Virus record (IMG/VR): IMGVR_UViG_2698536657_000004
Span: 1-21,243 of that record
Direction: 5' to 3' (one strand)
Source: a virus
Lineage: Duplodnaviria; Heunggongvirae; Uroviricota; Caudoviricetes
Length of the DNA: 21,243 bases
Numbering within the stretch: position 1 is the stretch's first letter; each line of letters starts with the position of its first letter. This document shows positions 17 through 15,086 of the stretch, in pieces. The notes below the pieces were generated by a model, which saw only the letters and a program-made list of their open reading frames with translations, had not been told where the DNA came from and searched no databases. The translations under genes and the position numbers were made by a program.

Positions 17-544
17 TCACTTAGCCGCGTGTCCACTATTGCTGGGTAAGATCACATTACCCAGACCGGGAAAGACATTTCTCTCTAAGCTGCGCCAGAT
101 GTCTGCTGCATGGTCTTGTGAGATACCTGATGTCTTTACCTTCTCATCTAACCATTTCCGCGCTACGGCTTGGAGAGTGTGCTCAGTAGCACTCTTTAAT
201 GCCTTCGCCTTATCGTTGTTATGGATTTGGGGATCAACACCATTTGCCAGAAAGGAGAGATATTCATCACGTAAGGCTCTGGCTCTTGCAAGGGTAAGGT
301 GAGGATATGTCCCAAGGCTCATTTTGGTTCTTTTCTTGCTCACTGGTACTGCATACCTGAAATACCAATTTTTCTTGCCTCCTTTCGCCAAAGGAGCGAT
401 TCGTAGAATCAGACCATCACCGTCAAACAAGTTGATTTCTTTATCGGCTGGCTTGGTGCTTTTGATTTCAGTGTCAGTGAGCTTCTTAGCGATTTTTGCC
501 ATTTTGGGACCCTCGGTTTTTGGACCCTTCTTAGTGGGTCCCAT
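17..544 (-). pseudogene. P4-type tyrosine integrase, N-terminal arm-binding portion only (175 codons, then stop at 17-19)
   Basis: Translation shows the N-terminal DNA-binding region typical of P4/CP4-57-type integrases (NLFDGDGLILRIAPLAKGGKKNWYFRY...LGTYPHLTLARARALRDEY). Family members are about 400 aa and no catalytic domain is present in frame. Only 16 nt lie upstream of the stop, so frameshift versus true truncation cannot be resolved. Confidence 0.45.
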
Positions 545-827: not shown

Positions 828-2000
828 CTAGATTACTTCTGAGATTGCTGTTTTTCCGTCATATTCTGATAAATATGAACCATAGTGTCTAAAAAGCATC
901 TCAGGTCCTTTATGTCCCATTTGACCGGCAAGCCAGAATAAATTTGCCCCTTGGCTGATATGCCTCGTGGCGAAGGTGTGTCTGGTTTGATATGGATTGC
1001 GGTAACGAACGCCAGCTTTTTTAAGTGTTGGGATCCAGGCTTTCTTGCGAATCGCTGCTGAATTAGCCCACGGCTTGCGTGTCTTTGGATCACTGAATAC
1101 AAAATCACTTCTCATCATCGTAAATGATTTCTGGGCCTGTAATGCCATTATGGCTTCACTGTTTAATTCAACTTTTCTGGTACCAGCTTTTGTTTTTGTT
1201 CCCTTTATCACGCCAACGACAGAGGCAACCTGTACGTGAACGGTATGACCAATAAAATCAATATCAGACCAGCGTAATGCACACAATTCTGAGCTTCGAA
1301 GGCCAGTATTGAATGCGAAACAAAAAAGGTTTCTCCATTCCTCATAGATGCAGGCGTTGTAGATAGCGGATGCTTCTGCTGGCGTGAAGGGATCTACTTC
1401 ATAATCGCCAGAATTGATTGCATGATTTACCGCATGGTATCTACTTGCGCTAACCAGCTTTACAGGATTTATTGTTATAAGTCCGTCAGTGACTGCTTCA
1501 TCAACTGCGCTTCTTAAAAATGACAGATTGTTTCTTATGGTCTTCAGTTTTGTCGTTCTTCTTGAAATCCATTTTTTTAATATTGCTGGTGTCAGATCTA
1601 CAACATGTAGCTTATGTAGTTCCGATAATGCGGATACGCATTTTTCATACCCATTTATTGTTGAAGGGGAGAGTTTTCTGTTTTTACAAATTTCCAGATA
1701 TTCATCAAGGTAATCTCTTACTGTTTTATTTTTCCTTACCATTCCAAATAATGCTAATTTTTTTGAGTTTGGAAAATGTTTTGAGAAATCAAAAGAGCCA
1801 TCGACAATCTGATTTTTTATTTCGCCGAGAAGTCGCTCAGCGTACTTAATTCCCTTTGCATTAGCCTCCAGTCTTGGTAAGGGTTCTCTGCAAAGAACCC
1901 CTTTATATGTGAAGGTTACAACTAGTGTAGAGCAATTCTTGTATTGACGAATTGTTATTCCTCTTGGGAGTGGTAAGGATCTTTGTTTTTTCTCGCCCAT
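828..2000 (-). CDS. int: Tyrosine recombinase (phage integrase), 390 aa
   Basis: C-terminal catalytic signature RNPYQTRHTFATRHISQGANLFWLAGQMGHKGPEMLFRHYGSYL (R, HxxR, Y); SD gagg 7 nt upstream of ATG at 2000; transcribed toward the att core as in lambda. Confidence 0.9.
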   Translation of the reverse strand: MGEKKQRSLPLPRGITIRQYKNCSTLVVTFTYKGVLCREPLPRLEANAKGIKYAERLLGEIKNQIVDGSFDFSKHFPNSKKLALFGMVRKNKTVRDYLDEYLEICKNRKLSPSTINGYEKCVSALSELHKLHVVDLTPAILKKWISRRTTKLKTIRNNLSFLRSAVDEAVTDGLITINPVKLVSASRYHAVNHAINSGDYEVDPFTPAEASAIYNACIYEEWRNLFCFAFNTGLRSSELCALRWSDIDFIGHTVHVQVASVVGVIKGTKTKAGTRKVELNSEAIMALQAQKSFTMMRSDFVFSDPKTRKPWANSAAIRKKAWIPTLKKAGVRYRNPYQTRHTFATRHISQGANLFWLAGQMGHKGPEMLFRHYGSYLSEYDGKTAISEVI

Positions 2001-2170
2001 TTTGAAACCTCAGTTAAATCAATCCATCGTTCTTTGGAGCCTTCCACATTTAAAACCTGAACCCCTTCCTTCCATACTCCACGTTGTAACCGTTTGTTAA
2101 CGGCATCCAGCGTTTCTCCCATATCTCGACACCATGTCGTTATGGGTACACAATCAATGTTGAGAGCCAT
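1955..2170 (-). CDS. xis: Excisionase-like small DNA-binding protein (71 aa)
   Basis: Small basic ORF immediately upstream of int, overlapping it by 46 nt; SD gaggt before ATG; assignment is by position and size. Confidence 0.55.
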   Translation of the reverse strand: MALNIDCVPITTWCRDMGETLDAVNKRLQRGVWKEGVQVLNVEGSKERWIDLTEVSKWARKNKDPYHSQEE

Positions 2171-2188
2171 AGTTACCTCATAAAACCT

Positions 2189-2323
2189 TCATCCACGGCA
2201 GTGGAACCACTCGTCAAACATTCGTTTCACAACGTCACGGCAGTAGAAGCCGTCAACATCACGGGTCAGGTCGTAGCGATTGCCGAATGTCTTGCGAACC
2301 CAGAACTCAAAAGCCGTATGCAT
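2189..2323 (-). CDS. Hypothetical small protein (44 aa, MHTAFEFWVRKTFGNRYDLTRDVDGFYCRDVVKRMFDEWFHCRG), below the 60-aa cutoff of the ORF track
   Basis: Hand translation of the minus strand; GGAGGTGA Shine-Dalgarno 6 nt upstream of the ATG at 2323; fills the gap between neighbouring genes. Confidence 0.3.
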   Translation of the reverse strand: MHTAFEFWVRKTFGNRYDLTRDVDGFYCRDVVKRMFDEWFHCRG

Positions 2324-2355
2324 GTATCACCTCCGTTGCATTGCGCGTAATTTTT

Positions 2356-2601
2356 TCAGGTGCTTTTCCTGCTCAGTTTCCGCCAGAATTTTGCAATTCT
2401 GCTGGTGGTCAATATGTTCGAACAGGCGGTGAACTCACCAATGCGTACCCGACCGGAGTGTCCGTCCATACGTCGAAAGAACACAGAGAGATCCGTACAG
2501 CGAGTAATCACTACAGGGTATCCGGCCCTGTCCGTGTATATTTGTCCGCGTTGAATAAGTGCGAACATACAGTTATCCCCAGTGGTAAATTGCAAATGCA
2601 T
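2356..2601 (-). CDS. Hypothetical protein (81 aa)
   Basis: Minus-strand ORF co-directional with the operon, starting 9 nt after the upstream gene's stop; weak SD; composition not strongly protein-like. Confidence 0.3.
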   Translation of the reverse strand: MHLQFTTGDNCMFALIQRGQIYTDRAGYPVVITRCTDLSVFFRRMDGHSGRVRIGEFTACSNILTTSRIAKFWRKLSRKST

Positions 2602-2610
2602 CAGGCCAGC

Positions 2611-3099
2611 TCATTTATCGTTCTCCAGTGGTGGCAAATCCGGCACTGTTACGCCAAACAATGCAGCCAGCGCACGATAGTTTTGCTCACTGTGATAGCG
2701 GCCTTTACAGCGAACCAGTTTTTCCGCAGCGGATTTGATTGCATCCAGTTCTGCTATGTGCTTCTGTGCGGCTTCCAGCTCAACACGCAGCTTCCCTACC
2801 GTTAGAGCAATTTCCTCGTTCTCCTGGTCGCGGCGTTTGATGTATTGCTGGTTTCTTTCCCGTTCATCCAGCAGCGCCTGCACTACTTCAGGGTTGAAAG
2901 CTGCGATATAACGAGCGTTGTTCTCTGCGTTTTTCTGTTCGTCGAATCCAGGCCAGTCGACAATATCTCCGTGATGATTATCTCCTGGTGTGTGTACGGC
3001 GTATGTGCCGTATTTGCCCGGCGAAATGAATGCGACCCATTCGCCCTGTGTTGCCAGTTGCGCCGCTTTACGCAGTGCCTGATAGTCAATTTTGCTCAT
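2611..3099 (-). CDS. Ead/Ea22-like lambdoid early-region protein (start placed at the internal ATG, MSKIDYQALRKAAQ...)
   Basis: N-terminal resemblance to Ea22-like proteins of lambdoid b/ea regions; central coiled-coil segment; GGAGTG SD upstream of the ATG at 3099; the track ORF begins at an upstream TTG. Confidence 0.65.
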   Translation of the reverse strand: MSKIDYQALRKAAQLATQGEWVAFISPGKYGTYAVHTPGDNHHGDIVDWPGFDEQKNAENNARYIAAFNPEVVQALLDERERNQQYIKRRDQENEEIALTVGKLRVELEAAQKHIAELDAIKSAAEKLVRCKGRYHSEQNYRALAALFGVTVPDLPPLENDK

Positions 3100-3103
3100 T
3101 TTT

Positions 3104-3370
3104 CTATTCACTCCGATATACAAGAATTACAATGTCACCTCTGGTGATGACGCGTGCTGGATCTCCTGGCTCCATACTGTCAATCCCGAAGGCTTCGGAA
3201 AAGGCATTCATTGCCTTCTGGCGTTGCTCCTGCTTACGGCGTTTATTCCATTTTTTCATGAACAACAGTGACAGCCACCGTCCGGCGCAGAACATGATGT
3301 AGAAATAACCAAGGAGCGCCAGGCCGACATTAAGAGCCGTATCTACGGTTAGTTGAGAGTCAGTTGCCAT
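3104..3370 (-). CDS. Hypothetical membrane protein (88 aa, one N-terminal TM helix then basic stretch)
   Basis: Hydrophobic segment LNVGLALLGYFYIMFCAGRWLSLLF followed by KKWNKRRKQEQRQK; ATG with weak SD. Confidence 0.45.
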   Translation of the reverse strand: MATDSQLTVDTALNVGLALLGYFYIMFCAGRWLSLLFMKKWNKRRKQEQRQKAMNAFSEAFGIDSMEPGDPARVITRGDIVILVYRSE

Positions 3371-3614
3371 CAGACTTTCTTACCTGTTTAAGTAATTGGT
3401 TGAACATAACACTCAGGGGATTGCTGTATCCAAACGGCAGATTGTTTACGCGATACAGAATCATTTTGTTTTCTGCTCCGGTTTTTACAATTAATCCTTT
3501 CCACAATAGCAGTGATAATTGATTACCGACGGAAACGGTACTTTTTCCAAGAGCGAGAGCTATATCCTGACGACTGCAATCCGGATTTTCCCGGATATAT
3601 TCAATAACGGTCAT
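3360..3614 (-). CDS. Small winged-helix DNA-binding protein (84 aa)
   Basis: HTH-like segment SRQDIALALGKSTVSVGNQLSLLLWKGLI; SD aagga 5 nt upstream of the ATG. Confidence 0.5.
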   Translation of the reverse strand: MTVIEYIRENPDCSRQDIALALGKSTVSVGNQLSLLLWKGLIVKTGAENKMILYRVNNLPFGYSNPLSVMFNQLLKQVRKSDGN

Positions 3615-3624
3615 TGGATTCCTT

Positions 3625-4206
3625 TTAGTTAATAGCGGTTTCTGATTGCATGCTGTGAGTATTCATTTCGTTAATCATTTCATTCAGAAGGAGTTCGAGT
3701 CCTTCTCGGCCCATACCTGAAAGAATGAAACCTTTATCTGGGCATGTAATGAGCATTTTCTGATAAAGAAACAGCGCTCTACCCATACCTTCTGCCTCGC
3801 CGTATTTTTGAATTAAATTCCATTCAATATACTGTTGTAAGGCAAAACGAATGGGACCGGGATATATCGTCATAAACCCATGCTTCCCGTTATATACTAC
3901 GGCGCGATCTGTTGTTCCGTGCTCATTCAGGATATCAATTGTGCCGTTCTTGTCTTCTTCTTCGTTGATGAATGTCGTCACATACAACCATCGCCACTGG
4001 GCAACCTTCATCTCAACCGGAAGTTTTCCCAGTAATCCTGCTTCGTCAGCTTGCGCGAGACACTGAAGGATACGTAAACCTCGCACATTAGGAGTATCGA
4101 ATTCTCCAGCATCCAGACGGCGGATTGCGTCGTGATAATCAATAGTCATACTGCCTGTTCGTATACCATTGGCTGTTGCTTCAGCCTGGAATTCAGCGTA
4201 TTGCAT
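3625..4206 (-). CDS. Hypothetical protein (193 aa), no recognisable domain
   Basis: Long ORF with SD gaggaa 8 nt upstream; start lies 6 nt after the upstream gene's stop. Confidence 0.6.
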   Translation of the reverse strand: MQYAEFQAEATANGIRTGSMTIDYHDAIRRLDAGEFDTPNVRGLRILQCLAQADEAGLLGKLPVEMKVAQWRWLYVTTFINEEEDKNGTIDILNEHGTTDRAVVYNGKHGFMTIYPGPIRFALQQYIEWNLIQKYGEAEGMGRALFLYQKMLITCPDKGFILSGMGREGLELLLNEMINEMNTHSMQSETAIN

Positions 4207-4211
4207 GAAAT

Positions 4212-4394
4212 TTATTCCTCATCTTCATCAGCTGGTGGAGTAACCTCATATCCTGCTTGCTTTACCATGAACAGGAATGTTGAAAAACTTCCTACAAGTT
4301 CATCGTCATGAACATGGCGAATAAATATTACTTTCCCGTTTTTGATGGTCAGCAATACTCTGGTTTGTTCGTGTTCTGCTGTTTTCTGATGCAT
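4212..4394 (-). CDS. Hypothetical small protein (60 aa)
   Basis: SD gggag 6 nt upstream of the ATG; tightly packed in the minus-strand operon. Confidence 0.45.
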   Translation of the reverse strand: MHQKTAEHEQTRVLLTIKNGKVIFIRHVHDDELVGSFSTFLFMVKQAGYEVTPPADEDEE

Positions 4395-4396
4395 TA

Positions 4397-4510
4397 TTAT
4401 CTCCCGTATGCTTTACGCAGAAACAAGCATGCAATATGCATGTAATTTTCACCGTATTGTGCAATAAGGCAGGCGGTCTTGTGTGATGCCATATTCTTTA
4501 TAAAAGTCAT
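4397..4510 (-). CDS. Hypothetical micro-protein (37 aa, MTFIKNMASHKTACLIAQYGENYMHIACLFLRKAYGR), below the ORF-track cutoff
   Basis: Perfect AGGAGG 7 nt upstream of the ATG; its stop overlaps the SD of the next gene. Confidence 0.25.
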   Translation of the reverse strand: MTFIKNMASHKTACLIAQYGENYMHIACLFLRKAYGR

Positions 4511-4592
4511 AATAAAACCTCCTGTGGATTAAGGGTGTGATAATCCCCGGCGATTAAGCCGTAATATATTATTCGGATATGACTTGTTTTAT

Positions 4593-4793
4593 TTAACTGG
4601 ATAGTTCTTTTTCAGCTGCTGCTTCAGCATAGCAACGTGCAAATTCAAGAACTTCATCACCTGTTCTTTTTATTGCGTCGTTGTCTGACATTTGTAATAC
4701 GACAACTGCGCATAATAAATCATGGATATTGTTTGCAAAGGAATCAGGTGCCAGGCATAAACCTTCATACTTATCATGGATATTGCCAGTCAT
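4593..4793 (-). CDS. Hypothetical small protein (66 aa)
   Basis: SD aaggag 8 nt upstream of the ATG at 4793. Confidence 0.45.
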   Translation of the reverse strand: MTGNIHDKYEGLCLAPDSFANNIHDLLCAVVVLQMSDNDAIKRTGDEVLEFARCYAEAAAEKELSS

Positions 4794-4798
4794 TGCTG

Positions 4799-5470
4799 CT
4801 ACTCCTTTGCCAGGGATTTACCGGTTAACAGCCACATCAGGTCACAGTTAAGTGCGCTGGCCAGAGGTACTATCTGATCGGCAGGAACTTCGCACACGCC
4901 GCATTCCCAGTCGTTTATGGGGTCGCTGTAGGTGTGAATCATGCGTGCCAGGTCTGCTTCTGTTAAGCCCAGTTTTTTACGAGCGCTTTTGATGCGCGCA
5001 CCAATACTTTCTTCCCGTGGTTCTGGCGCATTTACGCGAATAACAGACGCGCTATCTTTTTCATCCAGCAAAGAAAGCGGATCGCACCCAAGGACGTTTG
5101 CCAGGGGGATAAGCATGCTGATGGTTGGTTCGAATTCTCCGCTCTCCCATTGCAGGATGATCTCTTCATCGAGATCAAGCAGTCTGGCAAGTTCGGTGGT
5201 CGTTAAGCCGCAGGCTTCACGTTGGGCGCGGATTTTTCCAAAAAAGTGACCATACGAAACCATAGCTTTTGCCTCACATAGTTTTTCTGCAAAAATTGAT
5301 GCAGTTTCTTCTGTTTTTTGCAGAGAACGCATCAGGCATCTGATTGCATTATAAACCCTCTCACTTTCTGCTCCGTTTTCTGACATGTAGGAATAGATCA
5401 TTCCAAGCAGCGAACCGCCTTCTTGTATTTGTGCTGCAATTTCATCCATCACCTTAACTGCATGCTTCAT
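4799..5470 (-). CDS. Dual helix-turn-helix (XRE/Cro-C1 type) DNA-binding protein, first gene downstream of the leftward early promoter
   Basis: Two HTH segments (GLTTTELARLLDLDEEIILQWESGE and GLTEADLARMIHTYSDPINDWECG); start placed at ATG 5470 with AGGAGG 5 nt upstream; the track ORF extends to an upstream TTG. Confidence 0.65.
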   Translation of the reverse strand: MKHAVKVMDEIAAQIQEGGSLLGMIYSYMSENGAESERVYNAIRCLMRSLQKTEETASIFAEKLCEAKAMVSYGHFFGKIRAQREACGLTTTELARLLDLDEEIILQWESGEFEPTISMLIPLANVLGCDPLSLLDEKDSASVIRVNAPEPREESIGARIKSARKKLGLTEADLARMIHTYSDPINDWECGVCEVPADQIVPLASALNCDLMWLLTGKSLAKE

Positions 5471-5495
5471 ATGAGCCTCCTGTGGTTTTAATTTT

Positions 5496-5538
5496 ACAAT
5501 AGCCAAAGCGTTTAGTTATGTCAATCGCTATAGCTATG
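5496..5538 (-). promoter_or_regulatory. Candidate pL promoter with overlapping operator oL
   Basis: On the minus strand a perfect -35 TTGACA (5519-5524), 17-nt spacer and -10 TATTGT (5496-5501); adjacent palindrome GCTATAGC inside tcaatcgctatag, a 13-mer repeated at oR. Confidence 0.45.
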
Positions 5539-5599
5539 TGTTTTGGGCAGCAAAGAACAGATTATGCGAGAAATGAGACGATACGTAGGGAGTTGAGAT

Positions 5600-5633
5600 A
5601 CAGGAAAGTAGAGCAGCTGCGCAATACAGCTGC
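5600..5633 (-). terminator. Candidate terminator hairpin just downstream of cI
   Basis: Inverted repeat gcagctg/cagctgc (5613-5633) followed on the minus strand by a moderately U-rich tract. Confidence 0.3.
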
Positions 5634-5646
5634 CGGTGATGTTGAC

Positions 5647-6351
5647 TTATCCGACCCTGTTATACTGGATTGACTGATGAATGAGAACTTTCCCCATTAT
5701 GAATAGATGTTCTTCAGCTGATTCACTTATAAACCATTCCTTGTAGGCCGGATTGTCTGATATAACAGCAAGTTGCATCCCTTGCATTTGTAGGCGTTTG
5801 ATATGGAAGGTGTGCCCAAAAATAAAAATATAGATACCGTCAGTTTCAAAATTTCTGACGGATACGTCGACAAATACCTGATCTCCTGCACACAGAGTAG
5901 GAGCCATGCTGTCGCCATCAACTGTTATCATCTTTATGATATTTGCTGGCCTGCTACAGAACAGGCGTCTTGCAGCATCATGTGAAAATTCTATGGCATG
6001 GACCGTTTCTGCAAAATCTGACACAAGGAATGTTCCCGGCCCTGCGCTGGCTGCTATATCCAGGACCTCAACACGAAAAACATCCTTATCATTTTCCAGT
6101 GGGGAATATGATACCTGTGGTGTCGGATTGCAGGATGTGCTTTCTTCTGGGGTCATAGGACCAACACCGTACGATAGCCACTCGGGGCGCACGTTCAGGA
6201 TATTGGCTATCTCCACAACTTTCCTGGAGCCTGTGGCACCATTAACCAGTTTATTGACGCTCGATTGAGCCATGCCAACCTCTCTGGCCAGTTTTCCCTG
6301 CGAGTATCCGCGGATAGTCATAGCTAACTGTAGCCTGTCTGAAAAGCTCAT
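5647..6351 (-). CDS. cI: CI-type prophage repressor (N-terminal HTH plus C-terminal LexA-like S24 autopeptidase domain)
   Basis: HTH segment QGKLAREVGMAQSSVNKLVNG; S24 motifs GDSMAPTL and HIKRL; start placed at ATG 6351 with AAGGAGG 4 nt upstream; diverges from cro. Confidence 0.85.
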   Translation of the reverse strand: MSFSDRLQLAMTIRGYSQGKLAREVGMAQSSVNKLVNGATGSRKVVEIANILNVRPEWLSYGVGPMTPEESTSCNPTPQVSYSPLENDKDVFRVEVLDIAASAGPGTFLVSDFAETVHAIEFSHDAARRLFCSRPANIIKMITVDGDSMAPTLCAGDQVFVDVSVRNFETDGIYIFIFGHTFHIKRLQMQGMQLAVISDNPAYKEWFISESAEEHLFIMGKVLIHQSIQYNRVG

Positions 6352-6376
6352 AAGTCCTCCTTTTTCTGCCCTTTTA

Positions 6377-6449
6377 GTGTATCGCCTTAGCGATATATAC
6401 ACAAACCGCTTTTTCGTACATTGCAATCGCTTAAATCAATCGCTATAGT
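6377..6449. promoter_or_regulatory. Immunity region oR with candidate pR (rightward) and pRM (leftward)
   Basis: pR: -35 TTGCAA (6421-6426), 17-nt spacer, -10 TATAGT (6444-6449). Palindrome TATCGCcttaGCGATA at 6380-6395. Direct repeats caatcgc inside the pR spacer. The 13-mer tcaatcgctatag is shared with oL. Confidence 0.5.
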
Positions 6450-6474
6450 GAATAAAATCAGGTTGGAGGTCGAT

Positions 6475-6738
6475 ATGAAAAATGAAGGTATAGCCAAGGC
6501 TGTCGATATTGCGGGAAGCCAGATTGCTCTGGCCAGGCGTTGCGGTCGCGCGCAGTCAACAATTTGCGACTGGCTGAATGGGAAGAAAAAAATTTCTCCT
6601 GAATTTGTTCCGTCTCTGGTTAAGGCGGTTGATGGGAAAGTCCAGGCGTATGAATTTCGTCCTGATCTACCGGAGCTTTTCCCACACCCAGGCTTAGCGC
6701 ACACAGAAGATGGAGTGTACGAAGGAGATAAACAGTGA
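6475..6738 (+). CDS. cro: Cro-like repressor of the YdaS HTH family (87 aa)
   Basis: Translation matches the remembered YdaS-type motif pattern; GGAGG 5 nt upstream of ATG 6475; divergent from cI. Confidence 0.8.
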   Translation: MKNEGIAKAVDIAGSQIALARRCGRAQSTICDWLNGKKKISPEFVPSLVKAVDGKVQAYEFRPDLPELFPHPGLAHTEDGVYEGDKQ

Positions 6739-7442
6739 ATACAACAATTTTTACCGACAAAGCATCCATGACCAGCATTGAGATTGCCGAGCTGGTAGGT
6801 AGCCGCCATGACAGTGTGAAGAGAGCAATTGAACGTATTGCTGAACGATGTGTTACCCAACTTCCACCAATGGTGGAAGTTGAGAATAAACAATCACTTA
6901 GTCCTAATAAATATACTAAGGCGTACATCTTCGAAGGCGAACAAGGCAAACGCGACAGCATCATTGTTGTCGCACAGCTTTGCCCTGAATTCACCGCTCG
7001 CCTGGTAGACCGCTGGCGCGAACTGGAAGAACAAATCCGCAGACCAATGAGCCAGATCGAAATGGTTGCTGCAATGGCGCTTGAAGCCGTTCGCCAACAA
7101 AGACGTCTTGAGCAGGTGGAAGAGAAAGTCACCCACGTTACTGAAACCGTCGAGCAAATCAAAAGAGGCACCATACGCGATGGTTATGCAGGCTATCGTC
7201 AGCTGGTGGCGAAAACGGGTATGTCAGATGCGAAATGCCGCAATCTGGTGAACGCATATCAGATCCCTACCGACACCCATGAATTTATGACACCAGATGG
7301 TTTGTTGTCGCGTCGCGCGATTGTTGCAGTAGAACCTTTCATGGCTGCTTTCCGTCACATGATGAGTGAAGCAGAACCACGAGGTACTCGCTGGTATCAC
7401 CCGAAAATGGGACTGTTCCAGGCGCTGGGCTGGCAGGTGTGA
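6735..7442 (+). CDS. Rha-family phage regulatory protein with C-terminal extension (235 aa)
   Basis: N-terminal segment SMTSIEIAELVGSRHDSVKRAIERI typical of Rha domains; GTG start overlapping the cro stop (GTGA), SD aggag 7 nt upstream. Confidence 0.7.
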   Translation: MNTTIFTDKASMTSIEIAELVGSRHDSVKRAIERIAERCVTQLPPMVEVENKQSLSPNKYTKAYIFEGEQGKRDSIIVVAQLCPEFTARLVDRWRELEEQIRRPMSQIEMVAAMALEAVRQQRRLEQVEEKVTHVTETVEQIKRGTIRDGYAGYRQLVAKTGMSDAKCRNLVNAYQIPTDTHEFMTPDGLLSRRAIVAVEPFMAAFRHMMSEAEPRGTRWYHPKMGLFQALGWQV

Positions 7443-7461
7443 TTATGCTCACAGGTAACAC

Positions 7462-7632
7462 ATGCAAGTACTCAATCGCTGGTTCCGTGATGGAAGAGGG
7501 CGTCGCGTCCACGTTATACGCTGGGAGCCTGAAACACAGCGGGTTATTTACCTGCGTGATGGTTATCCGGATGAGTGCTTCAGTCCGTTGTGGCTGTTTC
7601 GTCGTGATTTTGTTGAGTGCGAAGCGCCGTAA
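7462..7632 (+). CDS. Hypothetical small protein (56 aa, MQVLNRWFRDGRGRRVHVIRWEPETQRVIYLRDGYPDECFSPLWLFRRDFVECEAP), below the ORF-track cutoff
   Basis: Hand translation in a different frame from the long track ORF 7439-8287; protein-like composition; ends upstream of a terminator. Confidence 0.4.
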   Translation: MQVLNRWFRDGRGRRVHVIRWEPETQRVIYLRDGYPDECFSPLWLFRRDFVECEAP

Positions 7633-7732
7633 GGCCTGTGCTGTTTACAATATTGATTTCCGGCGGTACACTTTTCTTATAGTGGCAAAATCCACTATCG
7701 GGAGTGAGACCCCGGAATTGATCGAGGCGACA

Positions 7733-7758
7733 AACGACGCGCCAGCGTCTTTTTTGTT
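7733..7758 (+). terminator. Rho-independent terminator (tR1-like) in the rightward early operon
   Basis: Hairpin gacgc-gcca-gcgtc (7736-7749) followed by ttttttg. Confidence 0.6.
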
Positions 7759-7783
7759 GTCAGTGCCTGCGCACACCAGAATT

Positions 7784-7924
7784 ATGGTGGGCTGGGCAGG
7801 GGAACCGAAAGGTTCGCCGGTTTCCTTGATCGCCGGTAGTCTCAACCCTGTCCAGTCCGCCACCAGCGAGATTGAGACCTCCTGTGGTGGATATTGTCAT
7901 TCACCGATCAAGGAGGCTGCCATT
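7784..7924 (+). ncRNA. Candidate structured cis-regulatory 5' leader, copy A, upstream of the second Rha gene
   Basis: 141 nt, aligns without gaps to copy B; nested helices; GAACC-GAAA-GGUUC hairpin at 7802-7815; CCUCC (7878-7882) complementary to the downstream SD GGAGG (7912-7916). Confidence 0.45.
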
Positions 7925-8287
7925 ATGGCTACGATCCCCGCACACCCATACCTCAAAATCGAGGTCGTCAACGGCAGAGCCGTTATATTCTCCCTGTATG
8001 TCGCCTGTCACTTTAAGCGCATGCATAAGAATATCGTCGATCGAATCGAATATCTCAACTGCTCACGCGAATTTCTTACCCGCAACTTTATACCTGGCAC
8101 TTATCGCGCCTATGGCGATTCAGTGCGCGGTTATTACATCACCCGTGATGGTCTGATGATGCTACAGCTAGGGTTAAGTCTGCGCACCATGCGGTACTAC
8201 GAGAGCTGCATTAAAGCACTACATGAGGTTGAAACCTTCCAGGGCCACTCTGCTTTCCGTCGTAATCAACGGGAGGTGCATCAATGA
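7925..8287 (+). CDS. Rha-family phage regulatory protein, divergent paralog (120 aa)
   Basis: Rha-domain start pattern MATIPAHPYLKIEVVNGRAVIFSLYVACHFKRMHKNIVDRI; AAGGAGG 8 nt upstream of ATG 7925; the track ORF extends upstream in frame, alternative start ATG 7784. Confidence 0.55.
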   Translation: MATIPAHPYLKIEVVNGRAVIFSLYVACHFKRMHKNIVDRIEYLNCSREFLTRNFIPGTYRAYGDSVRGYYITRDGLMMLQLGLSLRTMRYYESCIKALHEVETFQGHSAFRRNQREVHQ

Positions 8288-8442
8288 AGCGCCACCAGCA
8301 TATTGATTCTGCAATTCCGGAACGTTACACTGTGAAGGCACCTTATAAAGCGGGTGCCGGGATTGGCGTCCTGAAATTGATTACTGAGCAAAACCGCGCT
8401 CATGCGGTTTTTTCGTACCATGAGCATTGCTACGCCCAAATT

Positions 8443-8583
8443 ATGGTGGGGCGTACAGGGCCGACTTCGGTCGGGCCGGGTTCGGTAGTCTCCGGTAACG
8501 CCAACCCTGTACGTCTCACCACCTCTGTGATTGGCGTCCCATGTGGTGAGTTTTCTAAAAAACTGACTACCGGGGCTGTCACC
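8443..8583 (+). ncRNA. Candidate structured cis-regulatory 5' leader, copy B, upstream of the third Rha gene
   Basis: Same length and conserved blocks as copy A; hairpin here is CCGAC-UUCG-GUCGG (8461-8474); GUCCC (8536-8540) complementary to GGGGC (8572-8576) at the ribosome-binding region. Confidence 0.45.
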
Positions 8584-9147
8584 ATGACTACTCTCCCAAC
8601 CCTCGTTCAACCTGAAATTGCCATTGTTAATGGGCAGGCTGTTACAACTTCATTGGCTGTTGCCGACTTCTTCTCCAAACGTCATGACGATGTTCTGAAA
8701 AAGATCCGTATCTTGGATTGTTCGTCAGAGTTTTGTGCCCGCAATTTTGCGGAGACATCGATTTCGCTAAATCAACCGAATGGTGGTACACGCAAACTTC
8801 CCTGCTACCAAATAACCCGCGACGGTTTTGCGTTTCTTGCTATGGGCTTCACTGGTAAACGTGCAGCCCGGTTTAAAGAGGCATACATCAATGCTTTTAA
8901 CCAGATGGAGAGAAGCTTATCAGGAGCTGGCGCGGCTGACATGTCATCTGTCGCACAAAATGCCAGAGGCGTATACCTGCATTTGCGTGAAATCCATCAA
9001 ATCTGGAAAAGCCAGCTTTATCCCATGCTTAAGGCCGTTGAATCTCCGCTGGCTAGCAAACTGTACGACCGTGTAGGTGATGCTGTTTTTGGGGCCGCAC
9101 TTGTTGATTCCAGACTGAACGGTTCTGACAAGGAGGTGCGCCCATGA
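8584..9147 (+). CDS. Rha-family phage regulatory protein (187 aa)
   Basis: Canonical Rha-domain pattern IAIVNGQAVTTSLAVADFFSKRHDDVLKKIRIL...YQITRDGFAFLAMGFTGKRAARFKEAYINAFNQME; start placed at ATG 8584, alternative in-frame ATG 8443. Confidence 0.65.
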   Translation: MTTLPTLVQPEIAIVNGQAVTTSLAVADFFSKRHDDVLKKIRILDCSSEFCARNFAETSISLNQPNGGTRKLPCYQITRDGFAFLAMGFTGKRAARFKEAYINAFNQMERSLSGAGAADMSSVAQNARGVYLHLREIHQIWKSQLYPMLKAVESPLASKLYDRVGDAVFGAALVDSRLNGSDKEVRP

Positions 9148-9368
9148 TTCGCCGCGTCGTTAATTTCCTGTATCACCGATACAACCGTTGCCCCCGTGTG
9201 GGGCAGTGGTTCACCACCAGCAACGGACACGTTCTGCGGGTTTGCCTGGTTAATACAGAAAGCCAGAAGGTTGTCTGTCAGGTTCAGGGGCGTACTCATA
9301 CCCTGAGTTATCCGCTGGTGGCGTTTCAGTCCGGAAAAATGTTTAAGCGTCTGGGAGGTGCCGTGTGA
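9144..9368 (+). CDS. Hypothetical protein (74 aa)
   Basis: AAGGAGG 7 nt upstream; ATG overlaps the upstream stop (ATGA). Confidence 0.6.
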   Translation: MIRRVVNFLYHRYNRCPRVGQWFTTSNGHVLRVCLVNTESQKVVCQVQGRTHTLSYPLVAFQSGKMFKRLGGAV

Positions 9369-9691
9369 TTTGTAAATTAACGCCTGAAAAAAAAGCGCTC
9401 AATAAGAGTTCAAGGCTGCTTTTATCTTATTTGCAAAATGCTTCAGGTGAGCAGGGTTTTGTGGAAATTTCTCTTCTGGAATTGTCCGCAGCTCTTGGCT
9501 TATGCCGTAACACAATCACAAACGCTACGGCATTACTCGAAGATCTTGGCGTTGTCACTGTTTCCAGGGGGAGAAGGAATAAAACGAAAAGTGGAAAGGA
9601 AAGTGCAGGGAAAAATATTTACAGGTTGATCCAGTCAGCGACCAATAATAAGGACTACGCCATAGTCATGCCGCGTAAGGAGGTCGTATGA
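9365..9691 (+). CDS. Helix-turn-helix DNA-binding protein (108 aa), possibly replication-associated
   Basis: HTH segment LLELSAALGLCRNTITNATALLEDLGVV; GTG start overlapping the upstream stop (GTGA) with SD gggagg; sits directly upstream of the replication genes. Confidence 0.6.
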   Translation: MICKLTPEKKALNKSSRLLLSYLQNASGEQGFVEISLLELSAALGLCRNTITNATALLEDLGVVTVSRGRRNKTKSGKESAGKNIYRLIQSATNNKDYAIVMPRKEVV

Positions 9692-10680
9692 GTCGTTACG
9701 CTCCTACACCGGAGGTTATGGCTATTGGTCAAATTAATATTTCCGGCAATGTCACACCGCCATCCTGGTGGAAACATATCCAGCTACCCAGTGGGCGTCC
9801 AGATGCGACTGCCATTGCGCTGCTTTCAGAGATTGTTTACTGGTATCGCCCGACAGAAGTCAGGGATGAGCATACAGGGGCTTTACTGGGATATCGCAAG
9901 CGTTTTCAGAGTGACAAGCTGCAAAGAAGCTATCAGGCGTTTGCTGAGCAGTTTGGCTTTGGGAAAAGGGAAACCGCAGATGCGCTGAAGCGTCTTCGTG
10001 ATGCCGGGTTTATTACTCTGGATTTACGCACGGTGGAAATGCTCGATGGGGTGAAATGCAGCAATATTTTGTTTGTCGGGATCAACCCACAGGCAATTGC
10101 TGCCATCACCACACCTTCTTCTGTTTCGCCAGAAAGTAACAGCAATAATGCAATCAGCGATACAGCTATTACGTTAAAACGGAACACCCCCCAACGTCAT
10201 AACGGAACAGGGGATACGCCGAATGTTGATACAAATACAGAGATTACTACAGAGATTACAACGGAGACTAAAAACACTATTGGCGCATCCGCTGACGCGT
10301 CTGCACCAGCGCGTTCTGCCAGACAGGAATATTCACCGGAATTTGAGCAGGCCTGGCAGGAATACCCCAAACGTGCTGGTGGTAATTCCAAGTCAGCAGC
10401 TTTCAAAGCCTGGAAAGCCCGAATCAGGGAAGATGTGACACCAGAAACCATGCTCAACGGTGTGAAACGCTATGCCGCCTGGGTGCGTGTCTCAGGAAAT
10501 ATCGGCACCCAGTTTGTGAAGCAGGCGTCGACGTTCTTTGGCCCCGATAGACACTTTGACGAATCCTGGCAACAGCCTGCCGTTCCCGGAGGTGGGCGGC
10601 AAAGACAGGTCGATGTTCTGTCTGGCCTTGGTGCCATGTCTGACAAATTCGGTAAATCCAGCGACAAACTGACATTCTGA
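9688..10680 (+). CDS. Replication initiation / replisome-organizer protein (lambda O-like), 330 aa
   Basis: N-terminal DNA-binding region and C-terminal conserved phage block EFEQAWQEYPKRAGGNSKSAAFKAWKARI; internal TEITTEITTETK repeat; AAGGAGG upstream of ATG; immediately precedes helicase loader and helicase. Confidence 0.75.
   Translation: MSRYAPTPEVMAIGQINISGNVTPPSWWKHIQLPSGRPDATAIALLSEIVYWYRPTEVRDEHTGALLGYRKRFQSDKLQRSYQAFAEQFGFGKRETADALKRLRDAGFITLDLRTVEMLDGVKCSNILFVGINPQAIAAITTPSSVSPESNSNNAISDTAITLKRNTPQRHNGTGDTPNVDTNTEITTEITTETKNTIGASADASAPARSARQEYSPEFEQAWQEYPKRAGGNSKSAAFKAWKARIREDVTPETMLNGVKRYAAWVRVSGNIGTQFVKQASTFFGPDRHFDESWQQPAVPGGGRQRQVDVLSGLGAMSDKFGKSSDKLTF
10237..10271 (+). repeat. 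Three tandem 12-bp direct repeats (tacagagattac, third degenerate) inside the O-like gene; candidate origin iterons
   Basis: Directly visible repeat; lambda places its ori iterons inside O. Confidence 0.3.
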
Positions 10681-10690
10681 GGTGACCACG

Positions 10691-11569
10691 ATGATGGCGG
10701 CTAACCAGCGTGAAAAACAAACAAGACTACAGGCGCGAATGGATGAACTACGGTCTGAGATGGCGTTTGCGAAGTCAGGGGAAAAACCATGGCCTTATCG
10801 TTCATGCCTGATACGAGAAGGACGTGGATATTGCGAAAAACATGGCGAATATCACACGCATACTCTTGTGTGGGGTGATCGTAATGGCGAGGACAGAGAG
10901 AAAGTCTCACGTTGCCCAGATTGTCTGAGTGCTGAAATAAACGATGTGATGATGGAGTTGTCGTCCCTGAAGGCGGAAGAACTGACTGATAACGCCGGAA
11001 TTGCCCTGCGTTTTCGGGACTGCGAGTTTGATAATTATCTGGAGGTTAATCCTGACGCAGCCAGAAATCTTGCGGCCTGTCGCCGTTATGCGGAGAACTG
11101 GCCGGATATGCTGGAGAACGGTACCAGTCTTGTTATGACCGGCAGTTGCGGCACCGGGAAAAATCATCTGGCGGTATCAATGACAAAACATATCATCCGC
11201 AACTATCTCGCCAGTGTTGAGATTACTGACGTGATGCGTCTTACCCGCGCGGTGAAAAACTGCTGGCGGAATGACAGTGAAAAAACAGCGGATGACGTCA
11301 TTGAGCATTATGCGTCACTGGATTTGCTGATTATCGACGAAGTCGGTGTTCAGTTTGGCAGTGTGGCTGAAATGGCCATTTTGCAGGAAATCATCAATGC
11401 CCGCTACGAAAGTATCTTGCCCACCATTCTGATTAGTAACCTTTCACCGGAAGAGTTGTGGGCGTTCATCAGTCCCCGAATTGCCGACAGGATCACCGAT
11501 GGCGGGCGCAACTGGTTGTCGTTTAACTGGGCCAGCTACCGTTCTCGTATCGGAGGTGTGGCCGCATGA
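10691..11569 (+). CDS. DnaC/IstB-like AAA+ helicase loader with N-terminal Cys/His cluster
   Basis: Walker A GSCGTGKNHLAVS, Walker B LLIIDEVG; N-terminal C-x9-C-x2-H-x3-H...C-x2-C; SD gaggtga 5 nt upstream of ATG 10691. Confidence 0.85.
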   Translation: MMAANQREKQTRLQARMDELRSEMAFAKSGEKPWPYRSCLIREGRGYCEKHGEYHTHTLVWGDRNGEDREKVSRCPDCLSAEINDVMMELSSLKAEELTDNAGIALRFRDCEFDNYLEVNPDAARNLAACRRYAENWPDMLENGTSLVMTGSCGTGKNHLAVSMTKHIIRNYLASVEITDVMRLTRAVKNCWRNDSEKTADDVIEHYASLDLLIIDEVGVQFGSVAEMAILQEIINARYESILPTILISNLSPEELWAFISPRIADRITDGGRNWLSFNWASYRSRIGGVAA

Positions 11570-12966
11570 CCAGCCAGAACACCCCGGCATGGCGTAACGA
11601 TGACCTGGAAGGTGCAGTGATTGGCGCGTTTTTTCTGCGTGGGGCTGATCCGGAAGTGATGGATATTCTGGCCACGCTTCCGGCGGATGTCTTTTTCGTG
11701 CGTCAGTACCGGGATATTTACACGGGGATCTGCAGACAGGCCCGTGTATCCGGCGTCATTGACCCCGTGCTGTTGTGCAATGAGATGCCGGAGCTTGCCC
11801 CGGTGATTACCGACACCGGTCGTAAAACCTGGGTGAAGTCTTCACTGGAGCACTATGTTGCAGCGCTGCGGCGAAATGCCGCACTGCGCGATGCAGAAAA
11901 AACACTGACCGAAGCATTACAGAATTTACGTGATGCGCATACCTGTGAAGCAGCCGAGGATGCCCTGAAGGATGCGCAGAACATGATGGCCACACTGTCG
12001 ACAGGAAAGGGCGTCATTCAGCCGGTTCACATTGATGATGTCCTTCCGGAAGTGGTCAACCGTGTTGAATTCCGCAGTCAGGGACTGGAGAAATCCAGGG
12101 CGCTGATGACTGGTATTGATGAACTGGACGCAAAAACGGGAGGTATGGAACCAGGCGACCTGGTATTCATTGCGGCTCGTCCTTCGATAGGGAAAACCGA
12201 ACTTGCGCTGGACATCATCGACAAGGTGACTGAGCAGGGGCATGGCGTGCTTCTGTTCACCATGGAGATGGCGAACATCCAGATTGGTGAACGTATGGTG
12301 TCTGCTGCCGGGGGAATGCCGGTATCCCGTCTTAAATCTGTTGCCCGTTTTGAAGATGAAGACTGGGCGCGTTTCTCTCAGGGAGTGGGACGAATGACGG
12401 GGCGTAATATCTGGATGGTGGACCAGGCAAACCTGACCATTGATGAGATATGTGCAACCACGAGGCACCACCGGATGAAACACCCGGAAACGGCGCTGGT
12501 GGTGGTCGATTACCTCGGCCTGATTAAAACCCGTAGTACCGGACGTCACGACCTTGCCGTGGGGGAAATCTCAAAGGGACTTAAAAGCCTGGCAAAATCC
12601 GGCGGTTTCCCGCTGATAGCGCTGAGCCAGCTCTCTCGCGGCGTGGAATCCAGACCCAATAAACGCCCCATGAACTCGGACCTGAAAAACTCCGGGGAAA
12701 TAGAGGCGGATGCAGACATCATTCTGATGCTTTACAGGGATGAGGTGTACAACCCGGACACACAGGCGAGAGGCATAGCAGAAATCAACATCACGAAACA
12801 GCGTAATGGCACGCTGGGTACCATTTACCGGCGTTTTCATAACGGGCATTTTCTGCCTGTGGACCAGGAGAGTGCCCGGGTTCTCTCCACTCCCATGACG
12901 CCGGGCAATCCGCGCAGATACAGCAATAACCGCATGCCGGGCAGTAAAAATGGGCGTTTATTTTGA
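11566..12966 (+). CDS. DnaB-family replicative helicase (466 aa)
   Basis: Walker A ARPSIGKTELALD; DnaB-like C-terminal blocks (LSQLSRGVESRPNKRPMNSDLKNSGEIEADADIILMLYRDEVYNP); ATG overlaps the upstream stop (ATGA) with SD ggaggtg. Confidence 0.85.
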   Translation: MTSQNTPAWRNDDLEGAVIGAFFLRGADPEVMDILATLPADVFFVRQYRDIYTGICRQARVSGVIDPVLLCNEMPELAPVITDTGRKTWVKSSLEHYVAALRRNAALRDAEKTLTEALQNLRDAHTCEAAEDALKDAQNMMATLSTGKGVIQPVHIDDVLPEVVNRVEFRSQGLEKSRALMTGIDELDAKTGGMEPGDLVFIAARPSIGKTELALDIIDKVTEQGHGVLLFTMEMANIQIGERMVSAAGGMPVSRLKSVARFEDEDWARFSQGVGRMTGRNIWMVDQANLTIDEICATTRHHRMKHPETALVVVDYLGLIKTRSTGRHDLAVGEISKGLKSLAKSGGFPLIALSQLSRGVESRPNKRPMNSDLKNSGEIEADADIILMLYRDEVYNPDTQARGIAEINITKQRNGTLGTIYRRFHNGHFLPVDQESARVLSTPMTPGNPRRYSNNRMPGSKNGRLF

Positions 12967-13220
12967 ACAACAGAACAATCACTGTTTCACCGGAACAACT
13001 TCGTCGGCAGGCGCAGGAGATGCTTCGTTGTGCTGAACAGATGGAAAAAACGAGCGTGGCAAAAGATACGCTCCGCAAGCAGCTTACTCCGGCGCTTCGT
13101 GATCTGCTGCAGGCAAAACACCGCACACAAAAGGCGGTGGATGAGCTGGTGGATTGCGTGGCGGAACTGGAAGGCCAGGTAAGCCAGTTTGAAACACTGG
13201 TGAAGGAGTTTACTGCGTGA
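12963..13220 (+). CDS. Hypothetical small helical protein (85 aa)
   Basis: Protein-like charged helical composition; start codon uncertain (TTG overlapping the upstream stop, or a downstream ATG). Confidence 0.45.
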   Translation: MNNRTITVSPEQLRRQAQEMLRCAEQMEKTSVAKDTLRKQLTPALRDLLQAKHRTQKAVDELVDCVAELEGQVSQFETLVKEFTA

Positions 13221-13266
13221 TGGCTGAATTTTTTTCTCCTGTGTTCATGCAATATCGGTTGCTGAG

Positions 13267-14262: not shown

Positions 14263-14279
14263 TTTTGTGGAGAAAGTTA

Positions 14280-14672: not shown

Positions 14673-14730
14673 CGCGGTCCGCAAAAAGTATGTCAGTATG
14701 TTAAGAGTGGTTACTTTGCCACACAACTTA

Positions 14731-14756
14731 AACCCGCCGATGAGCGGGTTTTTTGT
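14731..14756 (+). terminator. Rho-independent terminator about 60 nt downstream of Q (candidate tR')
   Basis: Hairpin aacccgc-cgatga-gcgggtt followed by T-run. Confidence 0.65.
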
Positions 14757-14876
14757 ACTCTGATGTTGGCAGTACAGTAAACGCGCTGGTGGCGGTGAAT
14801 ACCTGTCTTTCAGCTTGCTGGTGTTTTCGACAAGAGTTATTGGTGTGTCACGTTAACCGGAAAAGGTAAAAAAGAC

Positions 14877-15074: not shown

Positions 15075-15086
15075 AGGCTTTTTTAT
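15061..15086 (+). terminator. Rho-independent terminator
   Basis: Perfect hairpin gccttcag-tc-ctgaaggc followed by tttttt. Confidence 0.65.

Follow-up and report, generated by a model that had tools for sequence, protein, structure and literature searches.

A probable leftward early operon of a Chi-rich lambdoid prophage carries independently shuffled accessory genes

The window analysed here, a stretch of 21,243 nucleotides, has a lambdoid organisation that runs from int-xis through an early-left operon and cI/cro to replication genes, Q and lysis genes. The ORFs named in the initial annotation were all found on the minus strand at the positions given there (Table 1), and its description of the early-left interval as an accessory region of poorly characterised proteins proved correct. 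One correction concerns the gene adjacent to cI, which encodes a tandem HTH protein and occupies the N position. Purifying selection was detected in all ten minus-strand genes from xis to cI when they were compared with homologs from other loci (dN/dS 0.06-0.57), the 37-aa and 44-aa ORFs being also within this range, and Shine-Dalgarno (SD) sequences were recognisable for most of the minus-strand early-left ORFs.

Table 1. Genes and sequence features of the early-left region and its flanks in the 21,243-nt window.
Feature	Positions	Strand	Evidence or remark
Integrase	828-2000	-	Phage_integrase + Arm-DNA-bind_2; distal end of leftward operon
xis	1955-2170	-	distal end of leftward operon
p44, 44-aa protein	2189-2323	-	PHROG_3871, E=2e-29
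DUF4222 protein, 81 aa	2356-2601	-	PF13973, E=3e-12; Chi site inside at 2401-2408 (+)
Ea22-family protein, 162 aa	2611-3099 (ORF 2611-3123)	-	likely true ATG 3099
DUF4752, 88-aa single-pass membrane protein	3104-3370	-	PF15944, E=4e-39, 132.9 bits vs cut-off 27; PHROG_667
wHTH84, 84-aa winged-helix DNA-binding protein	3360-3614	-	PHROG_1687 'MarR family', E=1.6e-22; optional cargo
p193, 193-aa acidic protein	3625-4206	-	PHROG_1515; predicted alpha/beta fold
p60, 60-aa acidic protein	4212-4394	-	PHROG_340, E=1e-20
p37, 37-aa basic protein	4397-4510	-	conserved small gene; strong SD CAGGAGG
p66, 66-aa acidic protein	4593-4793	-	PHROG_4587, E=1e-35
Tandem-HTH regulator, 223 aa	4799-5470	-	first pL gene; two HTH_3/HTH_19 domains; ATG 5470
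Candidate pL promoter	5496-5537	-	-35 TTGACA, 17-nt spacer, -10 TATTGT
Operator-like palindromes ATCGC-N4-GCGAT at pL	5524-5537 and 5499-5512		sequence reading
cI-type repressor	5647-6351	-	Peptidase_S24, E=2.5e-17, + HTH_3; likely ATG 6351, SD present
Chi sites, 19 (GCTGGTGG)	2401-18635	13 on +, 6 on -	motif count

The candidate pL promoter was the top promoter match between 1900 and 6800, with 10 of 12 positions matching, in a scan whose overall yield was at chance (9 found, 9.1 expected); within the early-left cluster the same scan detected no internal promoter above chance. The 18-mer and the palindrome present at pL were repeated at 6381-6394 and 6431-6452, where the cI/cro promoters lie, and copies with 0-1 mismatch were confined to these two promoter regions in the whole window. 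Judged by their sequence, the palindromes would be bound by cI, which would thereby control pL. Since the cluster lies downstream of a candidate sigma-70 promoter flanked by operator-like palindromes, its expression is expected after derepression and not in the lysogen.

The absence of an N homolog, already pointed out in the initial annotation, was borne out by Pfam, PHROGs and NCBIfam, which gave no match to the N family among the int-cI products or in the rest of the window. A hairpin-plus-U-tract scan, which addresses the intrinsic type of terminator, found none on the minus strand from 5600 to 600 and returned 12 matches, which represent about 8 separate sites, on the plus strand to the right of 6400. 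In lambda, the first pL gene encodes the arginine-rich N protein, nut sites carry boxA and boxB, and terminators lie inside the operon, whereas here the first gene encodes a tandem-HTH protein behind a leader of about 25 nt, and neither a boxA sequence nor an intrinsic terminator was found in the early-left region. HK022 relies instead on put RNA, a structured cis-acting RNA located just downstream of pL and pR, but in the window pL and the first gene lie too close together to hold one. The only gap, the 82-nt space between p66 and p37 (4511-4592), was considered as the site of a put-like or other structured RNA, which found no support: the segment was not significantly structured (folding z = -1.8) and gave no Rfam match at E<=1. 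As the operon contains no intrinsic terminator, an antiterminator would not be needed, and the pL operon is probably N-independent.

The tandem-HTH regulator, whose SD sequence (CAGGAGG) lies 7 nt 5' of the ATG, matched PHROG_4836 'CII-like regulator' (E=2e-52) and had a dN/dS of about 0.1. Its match covers the C-terminal part of that profile, while p66 also matches the N-terminal part; p66 (dN/dS 0.1-0.3) accompanies p193 throughout the Escherichia relatives. The p37 protein shares 86-100% identity with its relatives and 73% with that of phiP27 (dN/dS 0.06), and has homologs in CharmingMan and Klebsiella P18-100. The p60 gene, which contains a Chi site at 4231-4238 (+) that is preserved in phiP27 (L07), occurs together with p193 in all Escherichia relatives as well as in four distant operons (L004, L005, L090 and L092). 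PADLOC returned no match for DUF4752 (88 aa), p193, p60, p66 or p37, and its matches for the regulators of the window were generic wHTH/HTH only.

The p193 protein aligned with PHROG_1515 over nearly its full length (E=1.9e-90; residues 1-191 on profile positions 12-201 of 203). This was its sole profile match, since nothing was found in Pfam, NCBIfam, PADLOC or the PDB. Likewise, a Pfam scan of all 43 members of the p193 family yielded zero families and a PDB search with a profile built from these 43 members gave nothing significant, as did sequence-to-PDB searches with p193, DUF4752, wHTH84 and p60. The fold of p193 was predicted confidently (pLDDT 94) and had no match in the PDB or BFVD. 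The p193 family conserves the motifs LDxGxYD and WRW and a C-terminal His. A fixed small 5' partner of p193 in every context was rejected, as the upstream genes vary (ParE-like, TM protein or unrelated), though p60-like genes recur in the same operons.

A canonical MarR protein is one that matches Pfam MarR or MarR_2 above the gathering score and combines, in about 140 aa, a dimerisation region with a winged helix-turn-helix (wHTH). Since wHTH84 has 84 aa, covers only the C-terminal half of PHROG_1687 (positions 69-153) and matches MarR_2 below threshold (18.6 bits vs a cut-off of 27), as it does HTH_24 and Crp, we regard it as a wHTH protein and not as a canonical MarR; its dN/dS was about 0.23. 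In other phages p193 has a neighbour of about 275 aa, of which wHTH84 might have been a remnant; this possibility was discarded, because the neighbours in question proved to be Ant proteins or PHROG_200 lipoprotein/protease. DUF4752 has one hydrophobic segment (residues 12-30, KD19 = 1.68) followed by a K/R-rich stretch, KKWNKRRKQEQRQK. It is drawn from the exo-xis-type accessory gene pool, and in other phages it resembles exo-xis genes in lying between an Orf73/TraR-like gene and Ea22. The Ea22-like protein matched Pfam Ead_Ea22 (PF13935, E=6e-32, 111.5 bits vs a cut-off of 27) over residues 10-125, as well as PHROG_250 and PHROG_368; C-terminal domains vary between members of the Ead/Ea22 family, and a prolysogenic role of Ea22 is established in lambda and Phi24B only (PMC7093339). 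The DUF4222 gene adjoins a p193 homolog in three satellite-like elements and is one gene apart from it in a fourth (L007), and p44 is kept in phiP27, CharmingMan and Klebsiella P18-100 (dN/dS 0.15-0.23). In the literature searched, we found no experimental study of DUF4752, DUF4222, p44 or wHTH84; DUF4752 appeared in no paper and DUF4222 in incidental mentions only.

The 19 Chi sites of the window, a number reached in none of 100 shuffles, compare with 0.92 +/- 0.99 expected and correspond to 0.89 sites per kb across 21.2 kb. This extreme Chi richness had been missed in the initial annotation. As stated there, no Red, RecT or Erf recombinase was found among the int-cI products (Pfam, PHROGs and NCBIfam) or in the rest of the window. 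The same databases revealed no strand-annealing protein, exonuclease, SSB or RecBCD inhibitor in the minus-strand genes of 2189-5506, and no Gam-family match among the int-cI products or elsewhere in the window, which is a 21-kb part of the prophage that includes the early-left interval occupied by known Rec modules. According to Zheng et al. (2025; PMC12315714), 68 of 314 lambdoid phages of Enterobacterales have no Rec module, 62 of these 68 carry 8 or more actively oriented Chi sites and no more than 6 in the opposite, inactive orientation, and the type phage, LLS, also has no N. The 13/6 split of the window falls within the same limits. Given that the window fits this Chi-rich, Rec-less lambdoid class, its missing recombination genes pose no puzzle that needs an unknown module; through the many Chi sites, host RecBCD and RecA would supply recombination. 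Relatives bearing p193 are also Chi-rich with a strand bias: phiP27 (12/5), Stx1_14040 (8/2), CharmingMan (24/2), Klebsiella P18-100 (13/2) and phi467 (9/5).

With the lambdoids of the 'No Rec module, abundant Chi' type, of which LLS is the functional type (Zheng, Casjens, Davidson, Amundsen and Smith, Genome Res 2025, PMC12315714; earlier Bobay et al., 2013, PMC3784561), the window shares the lambdoid layout, an early-left region devoid of strand-annealing protein, exonuclease, SSB and anti-RecBCD genes, the lack of N and, as far as its partial genome tells, abundant Chi sites that favour the strand read in the late-transcription direction. The early-left regions of LLS and ST64B contain yfbR/yfdQ/yfdP-type genes, whereas the window has an HTH-p66-p37-p60-p193 block and exo-xis-type cargo. 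Its closest relatives are the yecE long-tailed Stx phages. These yecE/ompW phages (LC5678xx; Nakamura et al., PMC11333237, PMC8112680) and the Stx2e phage phiP27 (L06-L10), also a closest relative, present the same order, cI-HTH regulator-p66-p37-p60-p193, with 68-100% protein identity, and share with the window a Rha/Ant-rich right arm, DnaC/DnaB, Q, and a late region with tRNA and nanS-p. At about 91% DNA identity, the window differs from them in its integrase, its xis, the cargo left of p193, and a TerB-domain gene at the position of stx. Coverage of at least 80% of 2000-5600 was found in 2 of 5,426 complete E. coli genomes.

Two further systems are informative. The exo-xis region of lambda and Phi24B (orf60a, orf63, orf61, orf73, ea22, ea8.5) consists, like the interval studied here, of small non-essential early genes transcribed from pL, extends from the recombination position to xis, and includes an Ea22-family protein, which is the only lambda exo-xis gene found in the window. 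P4-like and PICI-like satellites, with the arrangement int-AlpA-Ash/AntA-small ORFs-DUF927 primase-helicase, contain homologs of p193 (E 1e-18 to 1e-28), of DUF4222 and, once, of p60. In these satellites the p193 homolog is directly 5' of the primase gene, whereas the replication genes of the window are of the DnaC/DnaB type and lie in the arm opposite the pL operon. P4 itself has no detectable p193 homolog, and tblastn found no homology between p193 and a P4 gene upstream of alpha.

With a probability of about 0.7, we interpret the interval 2189-5524 as the leftward early (pL) operon of a lambdoid prophage that is related to the yecE long-tailed Stx phages and phiP27 and belongs to the Rec-less, N-less, Chi-rich class. 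Upon inactivation of the LexA-like cI repressor, transcription would start at the promoter at 5524-5496 and proceed through eleven closely spaced genes into xis and int. The operon would consist of two parts, a co-inherited promoter-proximal block (HTH regulator, p66, p37, p60 and p193) and a shuffled exo-xis-like cargo (wHTH84, DUF4752, Ea22, DUF4222 and p44).

The initial annotation had suggested that the membrane protein, the small regulator and the 193-aa protein constitute a compact unit for superinfection exclusion or host modulation. Across related loci, the three assort independently. In 89 related loci that hold p193, the p66, p37 and p60 genes were upstream of it in every case, whereas about 55 had wHTH84 and about 48 had DUF4752, both being replaced by a PHROG_200 'lipoprotein/serine protease' gene in about 30. 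Conversely, 36 of 76 DUF4752 loci had neither wHTH84 nor p193, and showed the order TraR/Orf73-like zinc-finger gene, DUF4752, Ea22 gene. The small early-left genes are thus independently shuffled accessory genes and not a dedicated three-gene exclusion system. What survives of the host-modulation proposal concerns single genes, any of which could well influence the physiology of the host or the decision between lysis and lysogeny, in the way that Ea22 and other exo-xis genes do in lambda and Phi24B. By analogy, each product would most likely act alone as a small early factor tuning that decision or host physiology. Because 7 of the 10 early-left proteins have no experimentally studied relative, this view extrapolates from the exo-xis genes of lambda and Phi24B, and the functions of the individual proteins of the operon are to be read as putative. 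That p66, p37, p60 and p193 are so tightly co-inherited may indicate that they function together.

Other interpretations centre on p193. We consider it unlikely that p193, possibly together with p60, p37 and p66, is a factor in conflict or cooperation between mobile elements, which would act on a phage or satellite resident in the same cell by binding its repressor or another of its regulators, or by helping an antirepressor to bind them. Such a role would agree with the location of a gene for an antirepressor (Ant, Bro-N or ORF6N) right after the p193 homolog, or one small gene further on, in distant phages (L004, L005, L006, L090 and phi467), and with p193 homologs inside AlpA/Ash/AntA/ORF6N early operons of satellite-like elements (L007, L092, L093, L094 and L180). 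Moreover, p60 has weak similarity to antirepressor PHROGs in their C-terminal parts, and p193, p60 and p66 are all acidic (pI 4.4-5.2), with no catalytic-looking motif. However, adjacency is the sole support for this role and may be coincidental, because antirepressor genes are very common in such operons; in the window no Ant gene adjoins p193, and in structure comparisons its fold was unlike any known antirepressor.

It is also improbable that p193 and its block provide a cryptic DNA-transaction function in place of the missing Rec module, either as a modulator of RecBCD/Chi recombination or as a replication-initiation accessory. [quoted passage not shown] Five satellite-like loci have the p193 homolog directly 5' of the gene for the DUF927 primase-helicase, or with DUF4222 alone in between, often with translational coupling. 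All six p193-bearing phage genomes checked were Chi-rich and had no annotated recombinase, but this association may reflect shared ancestry among six genomes whose Rec status was taken from annotation. Against a stand-in for Rec, the early-left regions of Rec-less phages have no universal gene of unknown function (PMC12315714), the p193 family occurs in just 36 of 50,697 phage records, and its fold is unlike those of SSAPs, exonucleases, SSB and Gam.

Finally, early membrane proteins elsewhere are able to exclude superinfecting phages, T4 Imm and Sp being examples, and DUF4752 is membrane-anchored. Nevertheless, a single exclusion or defence system made of DUF4752, wHTH84 and p193 is highly improbable: the three genes are contiguous (junctions of 11 nt and 10 nt) and wHTH84 weakly matches a 'Ren-like exclusion protein' PHROG (E=2e-4), but a generic MarR-type PHROG matches it better, no other match to a catalogued defence or exclusion family was obtained with PADLOC or PHROGs, and the members, which assort independently, have no promoter of their own above chance within an operon predicted to be under cI control.

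As it stands, the interpretation of the interval as the pL operon of a Rec-less, Chi-rich lambdoid prophage matters little: a phage class known from papers of 2013 and 2025 gains one more mosaic early-left operon, and the three-gene exclusion module that had been suggested does not exist as a unit. The locus may serve as a worked example that, in a lambdoid prophage without a Rec module, Chi sites should be counted before a hidden system is sought. The one lead worth keeping is the p193 family, which combines a confident but unmatched fold with purifying selection and is common to Chi-rich phages and satellite primase operons. We regard as a long shot the broader proposal that p193 is the first member of a family of early proteins with a new structure, found only in temperate phages of Enterobacterales that are Rec-less and Chi-rich and in P4-like satellites, in which its gene is coupled to that of the primase-helicase, and that with p60, p37, p66 and DUF4222 it could be either a DNA-replication/recombination accessory, channelling RecBCD/Chi-dependent recombination or replication restart, or a factor for phage-satellite manipulation. 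Whether Rec-less phages have genes for recombination-related proteins that have escaped recognition is a gap that Zheng et al. (PMC12315714) explicitly left; p193 would fill it if its target turned out to be RecBCD, replication initiation or helper-satellite signalling.

A lambdoid prophage is represented in the window by its left half. Its early-left genes form a typical mosaic of early accessory genes that assort independently, placed behind a probably repressor-controlled promoter. All the ORFs named in the initial annotation exist and its domain calls were correct. The Ea22 and DUF4752 families were matched by profile, and the 84-aa protein (wHTH84) is a generic winged helix, with every Pfam match to winged-helix families being sub-threshold. 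Hydropathy of the DUF4752 protein supported one transmembrane segment followed by a K/R-rich stretch. Each of the ten genes, the 37- and 44-aa ORFs among them, had a dN/dS between 0.06 and 0.57 when compared with homologs from 89 loci, and therefore they are genuine genes. Successive parts of PHROG_4836 were matched by p66 (N-terminal part, positions 24-71) and by the tandem-HTH protein (C-terminal part, positions 75-194), so the two form a single protein in some phages; in phiP27, the 121-aa L08 (comparison locus L003, 3254-3619) ends in the p66 domain.

Features of the window, and coordinates of the p193 homologs in satellite-like comparison loci (each in its own locus)
Feature	Coordinates	Strand	Match
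P4-type integrase fragment, N-terminal	17-544	-	Arm-DNA-bind_3
Prophage integrase	828-2000	-	
xis	1955-2170	-	
p44	2189-2323	-	
DUF4222 protein	2356-2601	-	
Ea22-family protein	2611-3099/3123	-	PF13935, 111 bits
DUF4752 protein	3104-3370	-	PF15944, 133 bits
wHTH84, 84-aa winged-helix protein	3360-3614	-	PHROG_1687, E=1.6e-22
p193, 193-aa protein	3625-4206	-	
p60	4212-4394	-	
p37	4397-4510	-	
p66	4593-4793	-	
Tandem-HTH regulator	4799-5470	-	
cI repressor, S24-type	5647-6351	-	
YdaS-type Cro		+	
Rha/Ash proteins (three)		+	
Replication genes, DnaC-like and DnaB		+	
DUF968 protein		+	
Q		+	
Methylase		+	
tRNAs (three; Met/Arg/Arg)		+	
TerB-domain protein	17266-17769	+	
NanS-p esterase		+	
p193 homolog, satellite-like locus L007	5001-6011		
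p193 homolog, satellite-like locus L092	5001-5642		
p193 homologs, satellite-like loci L093/L094	5001-5666		
p193 homolog, satellite-like locus L180	2559-3215		

Eighty viral contigs carrying the p193 gene were scored for the presence of every window protein. Among these loci, p60, p37 and p66 always accompanied p193, whereas wHTH84 and DUF4752 were found in about 55 and about 48, respectively. A 275-aa PHROG_200 gene ('lipoprotein/serine protease') replaced both of them in about 30 p193 loci. Reciprocally, with DUF4752 as the starting gene, both wHTH84 and p193 were absent from 36 of the 76 loci with sufficient upstream sequence; in such a locus DUF4752 is flanked by a TraR/Orf73-like zinc-finger gene on one side and an Ea22 gene on the other, with a DUF551 gene coming next, which makes an exo-xis-type assortment. 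The compact exclusion system of DUF4752, wHTH84 and p193 that had been proposed is thus not supported, since the module fails co-occurrence in both directions. This pattern divides the region into a co-inherited promoter-proximal block (the regulator, p66, p37, p60 and p193) versus a shuffled cargo (wHTH84, DUF4752, Ea22, DUF4222 and p44).

Within 1900-6800, the top sigma-70 match (TTGACA - 17 nt - TATTGT) occupies minus-strand positions 5524-5496; downstream of it come CAGGAGG and then the HTH gene, whose ATG is at 5470. This promoter match is overlapped by a 14-bp palindrome (ATCGC-N4-GCGAT) and by an 18-mer, both of which recur at the divergent cI/cro promoters, and copies with 0 or 1 mismatch occur in the window only at these two places. 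From these motifs we infer that 5524-5496 is a cI-controlled pL. A hairpin-plus-U-tract scan detected no intrinsic terminator across minus-strand positions 5600-600. On the plus strand it gave 12 matches right of 6400, corresponding to about 8 distinct sites, and several of these lie downstream of Q and the tRNAs. BoxA was absent, the pL leader of about 25 nt is too short for a nut or put site, and the sole intergenic gap showed no significant structure (z = -1.8) and no Rfam match. In the simplest reading, as far as intrinsic termination is concerned, transcription of the operon would continue into xis and int with no N-type antiterminator.

As had been claimed, recombination genes and an N homolog are missing: no match to Red, RecT, Erf, Gam, Abc2 or N families was obtained anywhere in the window. 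Chi octamers, recognized by host RecBCD, numbered 19 against 0.92 ± 0.99 expected (0.89 per kb), with 13 on the plus strand, in the direction of late transcription, and 6 on the other. This is exactly the situation described by Zheng et al. (2025; PMC12315714), who found no Rec module in 68 of 314 Enterobacterales lambdoid phages, and who counted, in 62 of these 68, 8 or more Chi in the active orientation but no more than 6 in the other. Growth of their type phage LLS, which has no N homolog, improves with RecBCD, and they found no gene of unknown function that all Rec-less phages share in the early-left region; Bobay et al. (2013; PMC3784561) had earlier reached a similar conclusion. Chi richness and strand bias also mark the relatives that share the p193 block (phiP27, 12/5; Stx1_14040, 8/2; CharmingMan, 24/2; Klebsiella P18-100, 13/2; phi467, 9/5). 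Therefore, the headline feature of the initial annotation, the lack of Rec and N genes, is already known from a class of Chi-rich lambdoid phages that has been described. One Chi (4231-4238) lies antisense to p60, where it coincides with the codons of the conserved 'PPA' motif. The site is retained in phiP27 L07 (4266-4273 of locus L174), although the two proteins are only 53% identical; this retention could reflect selection for Chi or for the peptide.

The closest relatives, at about 91% DNA identity, are long-tailed Stx1/Stx2 phages at yecE or in the ompW prophage, in which the genes from cI through p193 follow the same order; phiP27 comes next (68% for p193). Coverage of 2000-5600 reached 80% or more in just 2 of 5,426 complete E. 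coli genomes, so the exact gene combination is a rare mosaic. The late region (16324-20372) has the Stx-phage layout (Q, methylase, tRNA-Met/Arg/Arg, then NanS-p esterase), the stx position being occupied by the TerB-domain protein and sRNA STnc100 (17996-18208). An Ash/Rha antirepressor-type cassette is duplicated in tandem at 7439-9147, both copies with an isrK sRNA (7679-7755; 8338-8414) and a C4 antisense RNA (7780-7867; 8439-8526), resembling the P1/P7 immI or Gifsy IsrK control region. At the left end, the P4-type integrase fragment directly adjoins the prophage's own integrase, suggesting insertion beside, or into, another integrative element; O111:H8 and other E. coli genomes share this arrangement (about 94% identity).

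Distant p193 homologs fall into two context groups, temperate-phage early-left operons and satellite-like islands. In the phage group, an Ant, Bro-N or ORF6N antirepressor gene usually follows directly or one gene off. The five P4-like or PICI-like islands (L007, L092, L093, L094 and L180) are arranged as int - AlpA - Ash/AntA/ORF6N - small ORFs, with the p193 homolog immediately upstream of a DUF927 primase-helicase gene and, in 4 of 5, a DUF4222 gene adjoining it or one gene off; the L007 homolog is fused to an additional 125-aa C-terminal domain. Several distant operons again contain p60-like and p37-like genes. These associations suggest that p193 might act between mobile elements, or as a replication/recombination accessory, both speculative roles that rank well below the ordinary reading of a mosaic of accessory genes.

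Within that mosaic, p193 is the only component still opaque, with no match in Pfam, NCBIfam, PADLOC or PDB. Just 102 relatives were recovered when 1.84 billion representative proteins were searched with a profile, and only 36 of 50,697 phage records encode a family member. An alignment of 43 sequences showed conserved LDxGxYD, WRW, Y105, R120, E128, Y148 and LSxxG motifs and a nearly invariant C-terminal His, which is missing from the window copy and its closest sub-lineage (...MQSETAIN versus ...MPEAPVTH in the family; 3625-3650). Homologs in Klebsiella phage records (MF695815, MK416014, MN166823 and others) are labelled '2-polyprenylphenol hydrolase / flavodoxin oxidoreductase', which no profile or fold result supports and which looks like a propagated misannotation. 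The PHROG_1515 family, to which p193 belongs, is the one modest lead.
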